Assembly (NCBI GenBank): GCA_964648855.1 | Contig: CAZYLT010000004.1 | Location: forward strand, 79,532-111,531 | DNA from: an uncultured archaeon | GTDB lineage: Archaea; Asgardarchaeota; Thorarchaeia; Thorarchaeales; Thorarchaeaceae | Length of the DNA stretch: 32,000 nucleotides | Direction: 5' to 3' | Shown here: positions 9,042-18,159 of the stretch, piece after piece | Numbering within the stretch: position 1 is the first letter of the stretch | Layout of the letters: each line of letters starts with the position of its first letter | Notes under the pieces: model-generated | Database searches by the model: none | What the model saw: only the letters and a program-made list of their open reading frames with translations | What the model was told of the DNA's origin: nothing | Made by a program: the position numbers and the translations under genes

Positions 9042-9057
9042 TTCGTCACGTGACGAA
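9042..9057. promoter_or_regulatory. Perfect 16-bp palindrome TTCGTCACGTGACGAA, putative operator
   Basis: Exactly self-complementary; lies in the divergent gpn/HTH-regulator intergenic region. Confidence 0.6.
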
Positions 9058-9112
9058 TTACAATAAAATCCATGCGAAAAGTCTTATCAAAGTCAAGAGA
9101 ACAGAAATACGT

Positions 9113-9856
9113 ATGGAACAGAGTGAAGCTCTAAACCGATTGGCCGAAACAATGGCTGGAGAAATATGTTTAGCCGAACATACTCCTGGTTCAGTTATGA
9201 AACGGTGGAGAGAACAGTTTCAAATATCACAGAAGGATTTGGCCAAGCATTTGGAAGTATCCCCGTCAGTAATTAGTGATTATGAAAGTGGGAGAAGAAA
9301 GTCACCTAGAGTTGATACCATAAAGCGATTTGTGGAGGGTCTAATTGAGATGGATGCTGCCAGCGGAGGCAGAATTGCCATGGCCCTCGAGAAATTAGTG
9401 GCACCTGAGATTTCATCCGATGCAATACTAGATAGTCGTGAGTTTGGAATTCCCGTTCCAGCTCGTTTCCTAGTTGAGGAATTGGAGTGCAAAGTCTTAA
9501 CTCATAAGAGCCTTCTTGACCGTGATGTGTATGGCTATACTGCTCTCGACAGCGTCAAAGCCATCGTATCATTGACTCCGCAACAATTGTTGAAACTATA
9601 TGGTGGTACGACACAAAGAATTGCAATATTGACACATGTCACTACGGGACGCTCACCCATGGTTGCAATAAAGGCCAGCCAAATTGGCACATCTATGGCT
9701 GTGAAACCAGCAGCGGTGATACTCCAAGGCGTGGAGGAACTCGATTTACTTGCTGTTAAAATCGCAGATAGTATACATGTCCCTCTATGTGTATCTGAAA
9801 TCAAATCAGCGGATAATCTCATCAAAAAACTTCGAGGATTTGAACCACAGATTTGA
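9113..9856 (+). CDS. XRE-family HTH transcriptional regulator (archaeal COG1709-like)
   Basis: MKRWRE...SQKDLA...SPSVISDYESGRRKSP HTH and C-terminal VTTGRSPMVAIK motif. ATG 9113 is preferred over the ORF-track GTG at 9050 because it lies about 25 nt after a BRE/TATA-like CGAAAAGTCTTATC. Confidence 0.88.
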   Translation: MEQSEALNRLAETMAGEICLAEHTPGSVMKRWREQFQISQKDLAKHLEVSPSVISDYESGRRKSPRVDTIKRFVEGLIEMDAASGGRIAMALEKLVAPEISSDAILDSREFGIPVPARFLVEELECKVLTHKSLLDRDVYGYTALDSVKAIVSLTPQQLLKLYGGTTQRIAILTHVTTGRSPMVAIKASQIGTSMAVKPAAVILQGVEELDLLAVKIADSIHVPLCVSEIKSADNLIKKLRGFEPQI

Positions 9857-9872
9857 GTATATTGGAGAGATC

Positions 9873-11171
9873 ATGATGGAATTCACCTTAGAAATAAACG
9901 ACCCAGTACATGGATTCATTGGTCTTACAGAACTAGAAACTAAAATCATTGATTCCGAACCATATCAAAGACTTAGGAGAATAAAGCAGCTTTCTGGAGC
10001 ACACTATGTATATCCTACAGCGGAGCACACTCGATTTGGCCATTGTATTGGGGCTATGTATTTGGCCGGACTAATAGGGAAACGCTTGTTGGGACAAATC
10101 GGTCTAGACGAAACGGCTATTCAAGAGGTACGACTTGCAGGCCTTCTTCATGATCTGGGACATGGCCCCTTTAGTCATGTGTTTGAGGAATCACTCGTTG
10201 AACGTCGGGAGTGTAACCACGAAGATGTCACCGAATGGCTCATCAAGAAAAGCGAAGTAAGCGACATAATCGAGGATTATGGCATATCCAGCAGAAGAAT
10301 TGCATCATTGGTTCGTGGGCGACGAGAAAGCAAGAAGGATAAAGTTGTAAGTAGCATTGCTGCAGGGCAAATCGATTCAGACAAATTGGATTACCTAATC
10401 CGTGACTCTTTCTATTGTGGTGTCAATTACGGTCTAATCGATATCCACAGACTCATCAATAGTATGGAGATATCAGATGACTATGATATTCAAATAGACC
10501 TTGCTGCGAGAGGGGCACTAGAGTCCTTCCTTGTTGCGAGATATGAGATGTTCTTGAATGTCTATTATCACAAGACCGTCCGCAGTGTTGAAGTCATGTT
10601 GATACAATTGATCAATGCGGCTGACAAAGCATTAGGATTTACGGACTTTTCTACTCCTGAAGAGTTCCTTTCTCTGGATGACATGTCTGTGGTATCGCGT
10701 GTACGGAAAATTGATCCCAGCTTATCATCCGATGCAGAGGAAGCATCAAAACTGATGACCGCACTGGATTCTCGAATTCTATACAAGTCAGCTTTTGAAA
10801 AGGTCCTACACACCGGAGACCAATTTGTATCAAAAGTGCTAACTAAGAAACGTGTTCGAGAGAGTATTCAAGATGAAATTGCAGCTCTTGCTGGCATTCC
10901 TTCCGATGAGGTCATCGTGGATGTGCCTACTCTCCCATCGGTACCATATAATCCTCATCAACTAGATCCCATGGAGATACAAATATTCGAAACGATTGAA
11001 AAAGAGCGGATTCCTCGCCGACTATCAGAATTCTCAAACATTGCTCAGATGATGAAAGTATATCTGGATGTCATTCGCGTTTATACCTTCGATCGTCATC
11101 GATTTGAGGTGGGTAGAGCATCTAGAGAGGTATTCCAAGAGGTACCAGATGCTGCATTGATTCATATGTAA
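9873..11171 (+). CDS. HD-superfamily phosphohydrolase (SAMHD1/dNTPase-like, COG1078 type)
   Basis: INDPVHG, QRLRRIKQL, YPTAEHTRFGH, LLHDLGHGPFSH, DSDKLDYLIRD, VYYHK; start 9873 or 9876. Confidence 0.92.
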   Translation: MMEFTLEINDPVHGFIGLTELETKIIDSEPYQRLRRIKQLSGAHYVYPTAEHTRFGHCIGAMYLAGLIGKRLLGQIGLDETAIQEVRLAGLLHDLGHGPFSHVFEESLVERRECNHEDVTEWLIKKSEVSDIIEDYGISSRRIASLVRGRRESKKDKVVSSIAAGQIDSDKLDYLIRDSFYCGVNYGLIDIHRLINSMEISDDYDIQIDLAARGALESFLVARYEMFLNVYYHKTVRSVEVMLIQLINAADKALGFTDFSTPEEFLSLDDMSVVSRVRKIDPSLSSDAEEASKLMTALDSRILYKSAFEKVLHTGDQFVSKVLTKKRVRESIQDEIAALAGIPSDEVIVDVPTLPSVPYNPHQLDPMEIQIFETIEKERIPRRLSEFSNIAQMMKVYLDVIRVYTFDRHRFEVGRASREVFQEVPDAALIHM

Positions 11172-11240: not shown

Positions 11241-12206
11241 TTGATCCGGGGAATAATATTGACTAACGATCTCAATGACACCTTGCAGATCATTAAGATG
11301 ATATCCGGCGTAGAGAACGTCGTCTTGATTCAAAAAGATGGACTTCCGGTGGCAAGTGCTGGTGTGTGGTTTAGTAAGGATGAAGTCTTTGCAGTGGCCT
11401 CATCAACCGCAGCAATATTTGGCGTTGCCAAGCTTATTCATGGGAATTTCCAGTACCTATTAATGGAGTCTGATACATCCAAGGTGTTTTTGGCATCACT
11501 GCCTGATGCTCCGGATTTCTTTTTGGCAATAACAACAGCACCTAGGGTGAATCTGGCTGCTCTATTTATTGAAATGCGGGATAGCATGTCTCGAATTGCA
11601 TATCTCCTTCATCAGCATCTCGATGGGCGTCTTCCCCCTCTCCGATCATTCAATCAGCAGGAAACAAATGAAGTACTCAGTGGATTCTCAGTTGCGGAAG
11701 GCAAACAAACCCAATATGCCAGTTCACGCTCTGCAATCCAGCTTGACAGGTCGCAGGCATTGTCTCTCAGAGCCGTTTTGAGACAGGTCCACGATAGTAT
11801 TCCTGCAATTGAATCCGTATTCCTCTCTCTAAGCGGCGGAGTAAGAGTTTCTCTCGAAGGATTCACAAATGATCGAATGGCCGCAATGTCTTTCGCCTTG
11901 CACGATGCCTCTCAACGGGTCATTGCAACCCTGAGGAACAGTCGACTTCAAAATGTTCTGTGCGAAACTAATAATCTTCGACACTTCATCTATTCTGTTC
12001 CTCATGGAGTGTTTAGTCTATGGGTGACACGAGACAGTCAGAAGCTGGGACTAATGCGTCTTCTACTGAAACACTATATTTCAGAAACAACCCGTATTTT
12101 GGAATCTGCCGTTGTAACAGATCCTGGATTACCAGATGACCTTCGGGATTTAATTCTCTCGGGGGGCTCAGATAACAACTTAGTGGTCGCGAGGCGAGAA
12201 AAATGA
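11241..12206 (+). CDS. Tandem double Roadblock/LC7 (MglB/LAMTOR-like) domain protein
   Basis: Domain 1, aa about 9-123 (GVENVVLIQKDGLPVAS...VNLAALFIEMR), and a divergent domain 2, aa about 173-288 (IPAIESVFLSLSGG...AAMSFAL...KLGLMRLLLK), are joined by a linker of about 50 aa. Alternative TTG start at 11259. Confidence 0.85.
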   Translation: MIRGIILTNDLNDTLQIIKMISGVENVVLIQKDGLPVASAGVWFSKDEVFAVASSTAAIFGVAKLIHGNFQYLLMESDTSKVFLASLPDAPDFFLAITTAPRVNLAALFIEMRDSMSRIAYLLHQHLDGRLPPLRSFNQQETNEVLSGFSVAEGKQTQYASSRSAIQLDRSQALSLRAVLRQVHDSIPAIESVFLSLSGGVRVSLEGFTNDRMAAMSFALHDASQRVIATLRNSRLQNVLCETNNLRHFIYSVPHGVFSLWVTRDSQKLGLMRLLLKHYISETTRILESAVVTDPGLPDDLRDLILSGGSDNNLVVARREK

Positions 12207-13123
12207 CCTATTCCCTCTTGAAACTAATTGAGATGTTGGGTGACCAATTTCCTTCCATGCTAAACTCAATACTCAACAGAATACCAATTTTGGTTGTAGG
12301 GAGAGATAGCGAGATACTTGACGATTTGTCAGAGAGTCTTACAAGACTTTGTCCGCACCGTCACAAGCTAGTTTTTTGGCGTGAATTTACTTCTTCCGAT
12401 GAAATTACTTCGGTAATAGAAGAAGAAAAACACGACCATGAAGTTGCGAGAACGGTAGTCTGTTGCTTATCTTCGACCATTTCTCTTGCATTGGAACGGA
12501 TCCAGGATTTTACTGGCTGGATTATGGCCGCTTGTATAAGACAGGATTCCTATGCACATGCGATGACCGAATACCAGCTAGAGGAGATAGAAAAAAAGGT
12601 TGGGACCCCTACTAACAACGTTGGTACACTCCGAGTGGAATCCCCTTCGAGAATTCATTTTTCTTTGCTCAACCCATTGAAAAGCCAACTTGAAGTAGAG
12701 AGAAGAATCGTTGATATCATCCTTACAAGAAAGTCACAAGCTTTGGAGCGTATAAAGAGGCTACTCGGGAAATCATTGAGAGGCATTGAGCTTCCAAACG
12801 GGATGATGACGGCTGTTCTTCAGTTAGACGACGAAGCCGAAAAAATCACACAAGACATTTTTGAAGAAGAAATAAACAGTTTCGTCTATGCCGCACGCAG
12901 AGCAGTTACATTGCTATCGCGGATTCGTCTTGCTAGAGAATTGGGCGCATCAACTGTGTTGACAGAGCGAAACCTCTACGAGGCAATTGGTTTGGATTAC
13001 GGCGGGCTAAATGAATTAATACAATTCATTCACTCTGAATGGCATGAGGATTTTTCAGACTGCATTAAAGGGGGGTCCATTTCCGGACTAGGCGCGTGGG
13101 TTGACAGTATGTGGGGCAGCTAG
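12203..13123 (+). CDS. Uncharacterised protein with putative cDENN/folliculin-C-terminal-like domain
   Basis: Clear 306-aa ORF coupled to the upstream gene by an ATGA overlap. The N-terminus SLLKLIEMLGDQFPSMLNSILNRIPILVVGRDSEILDDLSESLTRLCP has the helix-helix-strand-helix-LxP pattern of cDENN cores. Confidence refers to the domain call. Confidence 0.6.
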   Translation: MTYSLLKLIEMLGDQFPSMLNSILNRIPILVVGRDSEILDDLSESLTRLCPHRHKLVFWREFTSSDEITSVIEEEKHDHEVARTVVCCLSSTISLALERIQDFTGWIMAACIRQDSYAHAMTEYQLEEIEKKVGTPTNNVGTLRVESPSRIHFSLLNPLKSQLEVERRIVDIILTRKSQALERIKRLLGKSLRGIELPNGMMTAVLQLDDEAEKITQDIFEEEINSFVYAARRAVTLLSRIRLARELGASTVLTERNLYEAIGLDYGGLNELIQFIHSEWHEDFSDCIKGGSISGLGAWVDSMWGS

Positions 13124-13135
13124 GAGGTATAAATT

Positions 13136-13717
13136 GTGATAGTGGACTATGGTAATCGAACAGTTGGATTAAAACTGGTATTTTTCGGACCTGCCATGAG
13201 TGGGAAGACTACATCAATACGCTGGTTGTTCTCAAGTCTAAATTTTGCTGACCGTTTGACATCAATAGAAAATACGGTTGGCCGCACCATGTTCTGTGAC
13301 TTTGGAACAATTCCCTTTTCTCTCGGTGATAGTTGGACAATTAACGCTCACATATGGTCAGCAACTGGACAAGACTTCTATCGTTCCACGCGGGAAGTTG
13401 TCCTAGTAGGCTCAGATGGAATTGTATTTGTGGCCGATTCGCAAAGGGACCTTCTAGATGAGAATTTGGCAAGCTGGAAGGAACTCACCACCTTGCTGGA
13501 TGAAGAAAATTCAGCAATACCAATTGTTGTTTGTTTAAACAAGCAGGACTTGCCTGATAGCATCGATGAAACCACCCTTCGCTCCCATCTTCGATTACCA
13601 GATTCAATTCCCGTCTTGGAAAGCATAGCAACGACGGGAGAAAAAATAATGGAAGCATTTCAAATCCTGTTTCATGGTGCATTAAGAGCTAATGTTCTCG
13701 TTAAACCCTTTCCATAG
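13136..13717 (+). CDS. mglA: MglA-family small Ras-like GTPase
   Basis: KLVFFGPAMSGKTT (G1), RTMFCDF (MglA RTxFxD with intrinsic Arg), ATGQ in place of DxxG, DGIVFVADS, NKQDLP (G4). GTG start follows a GGAGGT ribosome-binding site. Confidence 0.85.
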   Translation: MIVDYGNRTVGLKLVFFGPAMSGKTTSIRWLFSSLNFADRLTSIENTVGRTMFCDFGTIPFSLGDSWTINAHIWSATGQDFYRSTREVVLVGSDGIVFVADSQRDLLDENLASWKELTTLLDEENSAIPIVVCLNKQDLPDSIDETTLRSHLRLPDSIPVLESIATTGEKIMEAFQILFHGALRANVLVKPFP

Positions 13718-13819: not shown

Positions 13820-15487
13820 TTGAAATCTATAGATACTGATACAAGACTCGTCTTTGTTACTGGTGGTGTTCTTTCTGGAATTGGGAAGGGAGTCACAACT
13901 GCCTCTATTGCAAAATTGTTTCAGTTCCGTGGATATTCCGTTCGTATAGTAAAAATCGACCCCTATCTCAATATAGACCCTGGGACTCTAAATCCAATTG
14001 AACACGGTGAAGTCTTCGTTACTGATAAACCATGGACGTTTAGACCAGTTCCCGACTTTGAGTTCACAATCTCCGAAATAGACTTGGACTTTGGAACCTA
14101 TGAACGATTCACTGGGATTGAAGTTCACCCGTCGCAGAACATCACATCGGGACAGATTTACATCTCTGTTATTCTTGGTGAACGAAAAGGCACCTTTCTA
14201 GGGAAGACAGTCCAAATCATCCCTCACGTTACAAATCGGATTAAGGAGAGAGTGTGGGAAGTAGTATACCAAGAACCAACACCAGACATCCTGCTAGTTG
14301 AGATCGGTGGAACAGTCGGTGATATAGAGGCTATGCCCTTCCTCGAGGCGATTCGACAACTGGCCAGAGAGGTCGGGAGAGACAAGGTTGCATTTGTACA
14401 CGTGACTTTGGTCCCCTATCTGCCCTCAGTTGGAGAATTCAAGACAAAACCTACTCAACATAGTGTTCGTACAATGCAGGGATTGGGTCTCCAACCCGAT
14501 ATCATTGTATGTCGAGCCCAACAGGAACTAACTCCTTCAGCCGAAGGTAAAATTGCCCTTTTCTGCAATATTCCCGAAGAGCATGTTATCTCAAATCCAG
14601 ACATTCCGATAATATATCAGCTTCCGTTGTCATTTGAAGAACAACAACTGGGACAAATAGTTACTAGCCACCTTGGCCTAGATCCAAGGAAACCCGATAC
14701 CAGTTCTTGGAGAAACGTAGTAAATTCCTTTGAACAACTAGATGATGAAATTACTATTGCCATGCCAGGAAAATACACAATGCTGAGTGATTCGTATAAG
14801 AGCATAAACGAAGCACTTGCTCATGCAGGTGCCAAATGCAGTGTGGATGTTAATATCAAATGGATTGAAACAGAAGAGCGTTGCAATGTAGATTGCCTAC
14901 AAGAAGATCTCTCAGCTGTTGATGGAATATTGCTTACGCCTGGCTTTGGAGAGCGAGGCGTTGAAGGAATGATAAATGCTGCAGCCGTTTCAATTCTGTC
15001 TAAAATTCCCTTTTTGGGGATTTGCTATGGAGCACAGCTTGGAAGTATTGCATTTGCAAGATATGTGATGGGGTGGAAAGGAGCCCATACCACAGAAGTA
15101 GACGAAAACACACTCTATCCTGTGGTAGATCTGATGGATGAACAAAAAAACACCGAGGAAAAAGGTGGTACTATGCGACTGGGGGGGCATGAAGTGAAAA
15201 TCGTAGAAGGAACTAAACTCCATTCAATCTACGGCAAAACAAATACAAGAGAACGTTTTCGACATAGATACCACTTGATTGATAGATACATTAGTCGAAT
15301 GAAAGATGAAGGTATGAATATCTCAGCTCATGATATCAGTGGCAAAATCACAAATGCAATCGAACTTGAAAACCATCCATTTTGGATTGGAGTTCAGTAT
15401 CACCCTGAATTCAGGTCACAACCAGGAAATGCTCATCCTCTCTATCTTGGGTTAATAAGGGCTGCACAAGAATATAAGAAGAGATAA
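13820..15487 (+). CDS. pyrG: CTP synthase
   Basis: [52 protein letters not shown] and glutaminase triad GICYG/HPE; TTG start. Confidence 0.97.
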
Positions 15488-15489
15488 CA

Positions 15490-16644
15490 ATGGTCGAATC
15501 GGACATTGATGAAGCTCTTCGGATTCTAGTAAAGCAGATTTCACATATTGAGAACACGAAGAGAGGATTTGCTCATGCAATAAGGCAGATTCTACCAGCC
15601 ATTAATCTGAGCAAGTTTCCTTCCCTAGCGTCTGATTTTCTTGAACCCAGCTTGGTTTCCACTGTTTCTCCAACGAATCTTGCTGGTCTGAGGATTGCTG
15701 GCGTTGATGGTGGACTCATCAAAAAACGATATCAATCACTCGACTTAATAATGAAACGGGCTGTTGGTGTTGTGTTTTCTTTTCAAGCTGAAGAGGGTCC
15801 AGAGGTCGATTTTTACCCCTCTCCATTTCCAAATCCGGTTGTTAAGCCAATAATTACAACACTTCCATCAAACGAGTTGGACCAAATCGCTTCTCTGGAG
15901 CGGCTGCTGTCCGAATTAAGAACCACTATTGGCATAATAGATGAATACCATACTGACATAATCTTGCTCGACGGGAGCCTTCTCTTTCACCCCCATGATA
16001 GGCCTTCCAAGGAAACTCTCGCAAACGAAAAATTTCAGGAGGTTCTAGCTCTTTACAAGCAGATCTATAACAAGGTATCAAAAGGCACGACAACACTTGT
16101 TGGCGTCGTAAAGGACAGTCGTTCAAGGAAGTTCGCTGCCATGCTTGGAGAAGTATTGCCTCATATTCTCCGCAAGCCACAGAACTTCGAAAAAATGAAA
16201 GATATTGATTATCGTTGGCTCTTGAACATACTAAGAGACTGTGACATTTTGGGGTCATTTCTACAAGCTGGAGAGCGGTCGTGTATATTTCGCCATTCTC
16301 CGGAGTCTAATAACCACACGGTAGAAAAATCGCTGTCAAAGTGGACTTCATCAATCATGGTAACCTATCTCAAAACGGTATCAAATGACTTGCCCGTCCG
16401 TTTCGAAATATTGAGCAACCCGGATGAAGCTATAGCTGTTATGGATAAAGCACTGGCTGCAATTTTGCCTATATCCTCCCTTCATCAAGAATACGGCTTG
16501 CCTACTCCAATTGTTGAAGCTGATACCCGAGCACGCATTAGCAAACATGAAGCCGACATGGTTGTTGATAGATTGATGGCACTGAGTGGCTTAGCTTATG
16601 CAACACTTGAACGGAGAAGATCTCGAAACCCATTTGGAGGCTAA
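15490..16644 (+). CDS. nurA: DNA double-strand-break repair nuclease NurA
   Basis: AGVDGG, ILLDGSL, GVVKDS, YGLPTPIVEAD; directly upstream of herA. Confidence 0.9.
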   Translation: MVESDIDEALRILVKQISHIENTKRGFAHAIRQILPAINLSKFPSLASDFLEPSLVSTVSPTNLAGLRIAGVDGGLIKKRYQSLDLIMKRAVGVVFSFQAEEGPEVDFYPSPFPNPVVKPIITTLPSNELDQIASLERLLSELRTTIGIIDEYHTDIILLDGSLLFHPHDRPSKETLANEKFQEVLALYKQIYNKVSKGTTTLVGVVKDSRSRKFAAMLGEVLPHILRKPQNFEKMKDIDYRWLLNILRDCDILGSFLQAGERSCIFRHSPESNNHTVEKSLSKWTSSIMVTYLKTVSNDLPVRFEILSNPDEAIAVMDKALAAILPISSLHQEYGLPTPIVEADTRARISKHEADMVVDRLMALSGLAYATLERRRSRNPFGG

Positions 16645-16647
16645 CCC

Positions 16648-18159
16648 ATGACCCATGAAAATCCAACAAGATTAGGAACAGTTGTTTGCAGAAATGATTC
16701 TCCTAAAGTCAGAGGTTTTTCCTTTGTAATTGAGGGAGAATCAGGAGATACAATTGTACGTCGGGGTCAATTCGTTTCAGTTCCGTTTCAATCAGGAGTT
16801 GTTATTGCTCGTGTCAGCGAAATCATTCAAACCAATCGATATTTTCAGCAAGCCGAAGCTGTTCGAGAATATCAACTGAGAGGCGAACCACTCAGAAGTG
16901 TGTTTCCTACGGATCGGTGGCAGTATGCAGTGGCCGAAGCGCAAGTCCTTGGTTTCTGGGTAAATGAAAAGTCAGTGCGTGCAACCACAAGTGTTTCTCC
17001 TGGTGCAGTTGTGAGAACCATAGATGACCACATTCTATATAGATTCTTAGGTCTTGAGGGAGATGATGGACTCAATTTAGGCACACTGGTTCACCATGCT
17101 ATCAAGTTCAGTCCATCTGTTGACTCTCTCCTATCTAAGCATCTTGCAGTCTTAGCTATGAGTGGGGCAGGAAAGTCCTATTTCGTGTCTGTGTTGCTCG
17201 AAGAAATACTATCTCGCAAAAGGGATGAAGGGCGCTTGGCAACCATCGTTATAGACGTTCATGGTGAATATTCCTACCTTAAGGAGATTACAGCTCGGGA
17301 TTTGGGATTGGAAGAAGGTTCATTTGAGATAGAACACATTCGTGGGACCCATATTCAAATCCCCGTATCCTCTCTTTCAGCTGATGCAATTGGTTCATTT
17401 GTAGCAAGGATGAGTAGCGTGCAAAGACGTGAGCTGCGGAGAATAATCTCAAGTATGAGCAGCAGCTCCGATAGCTATAATCTCCGTGACATAATAGACG
17501 CGATTCGTAACGATCAGACTATCAATAAGAATACCAAAGAACCATTGATTGGTTGGCTAATTAATCTTGAAGACACTCATTTATTCGGGAAGGAAGGTGT
17601 TCCTCATCTTCCAAATATTATTAGACCTGGAAAAGTGACGATTGTCGATCTCAGCGATTTTATCAATCTTAAGAAGAAACAAATCATAGTTTCATATCTC
17701 GTTGGTGATTTGCTTTACAAGCGTCGCCAATCCATGATTCCGCCTTTTCTCCTTGTCTTGGAAGAGGCACACCAATTTTGTCCTGAGAGTCGACATGAAC
17801 TTGCCTTACCAAAAAGCAAGATAGAAACTATCGCACGAGAAGGTAGAAAATTCTTTGCACTCCTATGCTTAATTTCACAGAGACCGGTCAAGTTGTCAAC
17901 AACGGTCTTGAGTCAATGCAGCAACCAAGCAGTATTAAGATGTACAAATCCCTATGATCTTGAACATATTGGTCGTTCAAGCGAAGGCATTGATAGAGCT
18001 TCTTTGGATGCAATAACGACCTTAGACGTTGGAGAAGCACTTTTCATTGGCAACTCAGTAACAGTGCCAACTTTCGTTAAAATACGGAAACGGAAATACA
18101 ATCCTAGTGGAACAGAAACTACTTTGTCCGATGCCATTAGACGGGCAGATAAAGTATGA
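16648..18159 (+). CDS. herA: HerA DNA translocase/helicase
   Basis: N-terminal HAS barrel, HLAVLAMSGAGKS, DVHGEY, LEEAH, AREGRKF, SQRP. Confidence 0.93.
   Translation: MTHENPTRLGTVVCRNDSPKVRGFSFVIEGESGDTIVRRGQFVSVPFQSGVVIARVSEIIQTNRYFQQAEAVREYQLRGEPLRSVFPTDRWQYAVAEAQVLGFWVNEKSVRATTSVSPGAVVRTIDDHILYRFLGLEGDDGLNLGTLVHHAIKFSPSVDSLLSKHLAVLAMSGAGKSYFVSVLLEEILSRKRDEGRLATIVIDVHGEYSYLKEITARDLGLEEGSFEIEHIRGTHIQIPVSSLSADAIGSFVARMSSVQRRELRRIISSMSSSSDSYNLRDIIDAIRNDQTINKNTKEPLIGWLINLEDTHLFGKEGVPHLPNIIRPGKVTIVDLSDFINLKKKQIIVSYLVGDLLYKRRQSMIPPFLLVLEEAHQFCPESRHELALPKSKIETIAREGRKFFALLCLISQRPVKLSTTVLSQCSNQAVLRCTNPYDLEHIGRSSEGIDRASLDAITTLDVGEALFIGNSVTVPTFVKIRKRKYNPSGTETTLSDAIRRADKV

Follow-up and report, generated by a model that had tools for sequence, protein, structure and literature searches.

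The window, a stretch of 32,000 nucleotides of DNA analysed as a whole, contains three consecutive genes that encode, in this order, a tandem-Roadblock protein, a stand-alone DENN protein and an MglA-family small GTPase (Table 1). The middle reading frame, whose product starts MTYSLLKLIEMLGDQFPSMLNSILNRIPILVVGRDSEILDDLSESLTRLCP as read from the sequence, is real and conserved, and its coordinates and N-terminal sequence had been given correctly in the original prediction that we follow up here. Relatives of the 306-residue product are 290-310 aa long, its nearest database matches carry the name Candidatus Thorarchaeota, and the gene is labelled 'hypothetical' in public records. The GTPase gene begins 12 nt past the DENN stop codon and is preceded by a ribosome-binding-like motif, and the Roadblock and DENN genes share the four bases of their stop and start (Table 1). 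With this layout, Roadblock, DENN and GTPase look like one translationally coupled operon. The operon is flanked on its 3' side by the genes for CTP synthase, NurA and HerA; CTP synthase also lies 3' of the operon in three other loci examined from close relatives (L005, L010 and L015). On the other side, the listed start of the HD-type phosphohydrolase frame is overlapped by the gene for an XRE-type regulator, and its true start is probably an internal methionine near position 9870.

Table 1. Genes and sequence features in and around the Roadblock-DENN-GTPase operon (positions are those of the window).
Feature	Positions	Strand	Details
XRE-type HTH regulator	9050-9856		
HD + HD_assoc_2 phosphohydrolase reading frame	9750-11171		listed start overlapped by the XRE-type regulator
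Tandem-Roadblock protein	11241-12206	+	321 aa; two Roadblock/LC7 domains, residues ~2-126 and 170-288
ATGA overlap	12203-12206	+	Roadblock stop / DENN start; read from sequence
Stand-alone DENN protein	12203-13123	+	306 aa; predicted cDENN ~1-160 and helical dDENN ~164-303, without longin/uDENN
GGAGGT Shine-Dalgarno-like motif	13123-13128	+	7 nt 5' of the GTPase GTG start; read from sequence
MglA-family small GTPase	13136-13717	+	193 aa; GTG start; assigned by profile and motifs
CTP synthase	13820-15487	+	3' of operon
NurA	15490-16644	+	3' of operon
HerA	16648-18159	+	3' of operon

The DENN family is conserved in part of the sampled Asgard archaea, being found in 172 of 301 genomes, usually in one copy. 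It is present in 74 of the 76 genomes of the window's own family and in 57/68, 16/19, 4/4, 4/4 and 5/7 genomes of other Asgard families, and it was absent or weakly matched in about 20 further Asgard families of the 301-genome sample. A profile of the tandem-Roadblock protein matched 170 of the same 301 genomes with nearly the same family-level pattern, at coordinates that adjoin those of DENN. The order Roadblock-DENN-GTPase on one strand was kept in all other loci with enough sequence (30 out of 30), including several families in which DENN identity falls to 24-33%, and on two short metagenomic contigs the GTPase gene lies directly 3' of DENN. Weak matches to the DENN profile were seen in five genomes of family f22 (G102, G184, G244, G283 and G295) and in G026 and G022 (E 1e-4 to 1e-3) and in G297 (E 1.9e-6). 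Apart from G022, these genomes had no tandem-Roadblock match at E<=1e-20, and their matches could stem from diverged paralogues of DENN or be due to chance. Four genomes (G162, G174, G240 and G281) carry two full-length DENN and two tandem-Roadblock copies on different contigs, which could reflect either duplication or strain mixture in the assemblies.

The gene directly upstream of DENN had been read as encoding a Roadblock protein, and the domain, profile and structural evidence confirm this. Specifically, the Pfam model Robl_LC7 matches the N-terminal half (E 2.5e-8), and in a search with the family profile both halves match solved Roadblock proteins (MglB at E 1e-3). The AlphaFold2 (AF2) model of the protein (pLDDT 78.8) consists of two alpha-beta-beta-alpha-beta-beta-beta-alpha units. 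When these were compared with known structures by VIA-align, the N-terminal domain matched MglB (Z 12.2) and the C-terminal domain matched MK-D1 Roadblock3 (Z 12.8) and MglB (Z 11.6). The linker of about 45 residues between the two domains is modelled with lower confidence, and the C-terminal tail (residues 307-321) is disordered, with pLDDT below 50. On this evidence the upstream protein is a single-chain tandem Roadblock and a putative MglB-like pseudo-dimer.

The downstream protein carries recognizable GTPase motifs in the family alignment: G1 (GPAMSGKT), a switch-I GRT, G3 (SATGQ) and G4 (NKQD). The switch-I arginine (R50) and the G3 glutamine (Q79) are invariant in the aligned family, and across the family G3 reads S/T/C-A/C-T-G-Q, with the usual aspartate replaced. 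MglA reportedly has these hallmarks (Miertzschke et al. 2011), namely an intrinsic switch-I arginine, a G3 glutamine and a replaced G3 aspartate. The family profile retrieves MglA structures at E 2e-42, with DnaJC27, Rab11 and Arf1 following at 7e-14 or weaker, and the matches of the GTPase to the Pfam families Arf, Roc and Ras are weak. Judged by its sequence, the operon GTPase clearly belongs to the MglA family. In several loci of another Asgard family, just past the operon GTPase and on the opposite strand, we also observed fragments of a second small-GTPase-like gene (L003:6-194, L006:5-211, L007:3412-3600, L009:7-204, L013:3699-3887 and L014:3695-3892), which are 35-37% identical to residues ~86-153 of the operon GTPase.

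For the DENN protein itself, sequence models gave little. In the window protein, Pfam and NCBIfam found nothing relevant (Pfam none at E<=1); the family profile, run against PDB sequences, gave no DENN match and only spurious ferritin matches; and the Pfam models Folliculin_C and Folliculin, applied to a six-frame translation of the entire genome, found nothing at E<=1. In a Pfam scan of 37 family members, Folliculin_C matched 3 of the 37 (best E 4.8e-4) and was the sole Pfam family to match more than one of them, and the Pfam DENN model matched one (E 0.093). No Pfam or NCBIfam model and no PDB sequence profile is significant for the window protein, and its assignment to DENN rests mainly on predicted structure.

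AlphaFold2, run on an alignment of the window protein with 36 relatives (identity down to 19%), returned a confident model with pLDDT 90.8 and pTM 0.87. In this model the N-terminal half is alpha/beta, with core strands at residues 29-33, 54-58, 84-88, 106-111 and 141-155 and helices between them, and the C-terminal half (164-303) is entirely helical, as the original prediction had described. The structure prediction that it had proposed as a check thus yields a cDENN core built on a central beta-sheet, and DENN proteins rank first among the structures that resemble it. An exhaustive VIA-align comparison of the model with 48,161 PDB representative chains placed DENN proteins at ranks 1-5 (Z 13.6-11.1), each covering both subdomains. 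These matches include DENND10 (8P0V_M, Z 13.6, 187 residues aligned, chain 157-357), folliculin in two structures (6NZD_H, Z 13.3, rmsd 3.5 A over 187 residues; 3V42_B, Z 13.1, rmsd 3.5 A over 188 residues; chain 345-558 in both), C9orf72 (7O2W_A, Z 11.2) and SMCR8 (6LT0_B, Z 11.1). DENND1A (6EKK_A) reached Z 9.1, against Z 9.3 for the best non-DENN chain. The DENN matches given here cover the model from residue 1 to about 290-296, and in the superposition on folliculin (FLCN) model residues 1-282 lie on FLCN 345-558. P-loop ATPases reached Z <=9.3, mostly over the alpha/beta core (residues 1-160) alone.

Foldseek was less decisive. Run with the DENN model against the PDB, it returned nothing at E<=1e-3, and FLCN chains appeared among AAA+/PilT ATPases with a probability of 0.95-0.98 and a weak E of ~4e-3. 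The weak E for FLCN arises because the two lobes superpose non-rigidly, and the exhaustive VIA-align comparison resolved the ambiguity. In the ESM Atlas, the best non-self match by shape was a DENND11 cluster (TM 0.55), with ATPases at <=0.41, and the language-model neighbours were mainly C9orf72-like, SPA, Folliculin_C/SMCR8_C and DENND11/Avl9 clusters, which are families of the DENN group. No Walker A motif (GxxxxGK[ST]) was found: strand 1 is followed by a loop with the sequence VGRDSEI, and no Lys, Ser or Thr is conserved there in 37 relatives. A longin (uDENN) lobe was sought in the same chain and not found; the protein opens at the first cDENN helix, and the structural matches begin after the longin lobes of the partners (FLCN 345, DENND10 157 and C9orf72 202). 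Because the top structural matches, the ESM Atlas neighbours, the Folliculin_C matches and the missing Walker A motif all agree, the 306-aa protein is, by its modelled fold, a cDENN+dDENN protein of the DENN superfamily without a longin lobe. The original prediction of a stand-alone, longin-less protein resembling cDENN and the C-terminal part of folliculin is thus borne out by the AF2 model and the VIA-align DENN matches.

The same prediction had reached this reading by aligning the start of the protein by eye with a piece of human folliculin, which proved to be a letter-perfect copy of FLCN residues 348-396. With BLOSUM62, the top-scoring local alignment between the full-length protein and this string is the very alignment proposed, with 11 identities and one gap. 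Its register is correct, and the superposition, which starts with model residue 1 on FLCN 345, agrees with it. Its significance by sequence alone did not hold: 33% of shuffled proteins reached the alignment score of 27, which does not lift the match above chance, and by itself it proves nothing. When only the matching segment was shuffled, z was 5.8. Several of the identities that had been counted (R34 and D35) are unconserved across the DENN family, and at the family-invariant residues R26, P28 and R53 folliculin has different residues.

Together, these observations lead us to propose that the three-gene operon encodes one switch module made of an MglA-family GTPase, an MglB-like Roadblock pseudo-dimer and DENN as a third regulator, a reading that we consider probable. 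It builds on the fold, the three family assignments, the gene order, the coupling and the co-distribution observed above, and from it we infer physical binding of the operon proteins as well as any GEF or GAP activity they may have. As in MglA, the GTPase would carry an arginine finger of its own together with the catalytic glutamine. MglB is the GAP of MglA and works as a Roadblock dimer that binds one MglA; by analogy, the Roadblock pseudo-dimer should dock on the GTPase as MglB does and stimulate hydrolysis. DENN would be the third regulator, most probably an exchange factor, or otherwise a co-regulator or an effector responding to the state of the GTPase, and it might be anchored on the Roadblock platform when it acts. 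A prediction of the three-chain complex with DENN as a partner gave a score of 0.00 with controls absent, and counts neither way. The eukaryotic proteins FLCN and SMCR8 carry their catalytic GAP arginine in the longin domain. Since that domain is missing here, catalysis by a protein made of cDENN and dDENN only is not a given. A recent paper raises the question whether MglA systems need a classical GEF.

A different role for the Roadblock protein had been suggested in the original prediction, namely that it supplies the longin equivalent in trans. Under this alternative, one or both Roadblock domains would pack on cDENN at the longin site, and the operon would preserve an ancestral bilobed DENN module whose parts were later fused in eukaryotes. 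Such an arrangement would fit the strict adjacency, translational coupling and nearly identical family-level distribution of the Roadblock and DENN genes, and it would suit a DENN protein that has no longin of its own; that Roadblock and longin are related folds, both serving as GTPase platforms, is established and also found in the literature. We nevertheless regard this alternative as rather unlikely, given that an MglB-like double Roadblock beside an MglA-type GTPase is already explained without a longin surrogate: with these two partners side by side, the simpler role to expect for the Roadblock protein is that of a GAP platform. Natural fusions of the two genes, which had been named as a check, were searched for and not found. 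In this DENN family, neither 69 HMMER representatives nor a search of proteins 546-2000 aa long yielded a fusion with Roadblock or longin, although the lack of fused DENN forms in this latter size range is weak evidence, and in the three longer HMMER representatives (370-434 aa) Pfam finds neither domain. One match, 1161 aa in length, is a TIG-repeat protein and was discarded as spurious. Finally, true longin-DENN proteins have been reported in some Heimdallarchaea (Liu et al., bioRxiv 10.1101/2020.10.19.343400), so fusions of the eukaryotic type need not derive from this operon.

Returning to the switch module, one could imagine that DENN first served as the third partner of a prokaryote-type MglA/MglB switch, that it binds the single-chain Roadblock pseudo-dimer at the position which a fused longin lobe later took over, that this pair acts on the MglA-like GTPase as a GEF or as a combined GEF/GAP, and that the operon is a living intermediate on the way from the bacterial/archaeal MglA-MglB polarity module to eukaryotic longin-DENN regulators such as FLCN-FNIP, C9orf72-SMCR8 and DENND1. 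This scenario is tentative, and we would not favour it at present; the link from MglA/MglB through such an intermediate to longin-DENN proteins is not spelled out in the literature that we searched. Least probable by far is the reading of the DENN protein as what is left of a degenerate P-loop/RecA-like NTPase, which would resemble DENN through a shared three-layer alpha/beta architecture without being homologous to eukaryotic DENN domains. Many GspE/PilT, RuvB-like and RecA/KaiC ATPases do match residues 1-160 at Z 7-9.3, and ATPases dominate the weak Foldseek list. The DENN matches, however, exceed all ATPases by 2-4 Z units and take in the helical C-terminal half, whereas most ATPase matches stop at about residue 160, and what hints the sequence gives are of Folliculin_C and C9orf72-like families and not of ATPases. 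With no Walker A motif and with most ATPase matches covering only half of the protein, we rejected this reading.

In eukaryotes, Rab, Arf and Rag GTPases have major regulators in the DENN and longin proteins, which act in membrane traffic and mTORC1 signalling and for a long time were regarded as exclusive to eukaryotes. Their genes include those for ALS and Birt-Hogg-Dube syndrome, folliculin being a human tumour suppressor. The operon names the likely partners of an archaeal DENN protein in advance, that is, a likely GTPase and the Roadblock protein, and such a three-protein system would allow one to measure whether the ancestral activity of DENN is that of a GEF, a GAP or a scaffold. The module is an appealing experimental model for how DENN regulators arose.

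The original prediction had implied that the finding was new, and in this respect it was anticipated. Liu et al. (bioRxiv 10.1101/2020.10.19.343400; Nature 2021, 593:553) described a putative operon of Roadblock, small GTPase and DENN in most Asgard archaea and proposed it, by analogy with FLCN, as a candidate FLCN-like GEF module. Their operon agrees with the one in the window in its genes and in the range of lineages that carry it. The central finding had thus been published before: the DENN reading is correct, and its core is already known. Their terms differ from ours, in that they speak of a 'Rab-like' GTPase and a 'LAMTOR1-like' Roadblock, whereas we assign the two proteins to an MglA-family GTPase and a tandem MglB-like Roadblock. 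What the window adds is a confirmed Thorarchaeota member of the published operon, a sharper assignment of the partners as MglA-type and MglB-type, and a DENN gene for which the public records have yet to catch up. Later literature on Asgard longins, Roadblocks and GTPases contained no experimental treatment of this DENN family, and in literature linking MglA, Asgard and DENN we found a passing mention only.

Among characterized proteins, the best structural match is DENND10 (FAM45A) in the Commander complex (8P0V chain M). Proteins of this kind (DENND10 and the DENND11/SPA/Avl9 type) have an N-terminal longin lobe and GTPases that are encoded apart from them, neither of which applies to the window's DENN protein. 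The C-terminal DENN part of FLCN (3V42; FLCN-FNIP2 in 6NZD and 8DHB) has the same two-part fold at about 10% identity, and each of the two is part of a module that also contains Roadblock proteins and a small GTPase. FLCN, however, carries its GAP arginine in an N-terminal longin, has FNIP as its partner and targets the Rag GTPases on Ragulator, whereas the window operon has no longin, no FNIP-like second DENN gene and an MglA-type GTPase. The flanking pair of the operon resembles the MglA-MglB polarity switch of Myxococcus and Thermus (3T12, 6IZW and 6H5B). In bacteria, MglB is a single-domain homodimer, DENN is missing and the third components (RomR/RomX and MglC) are unrelated to it, while the single-chain double Roadblock of the window would mimic the MglB dimer that binds one MglA.
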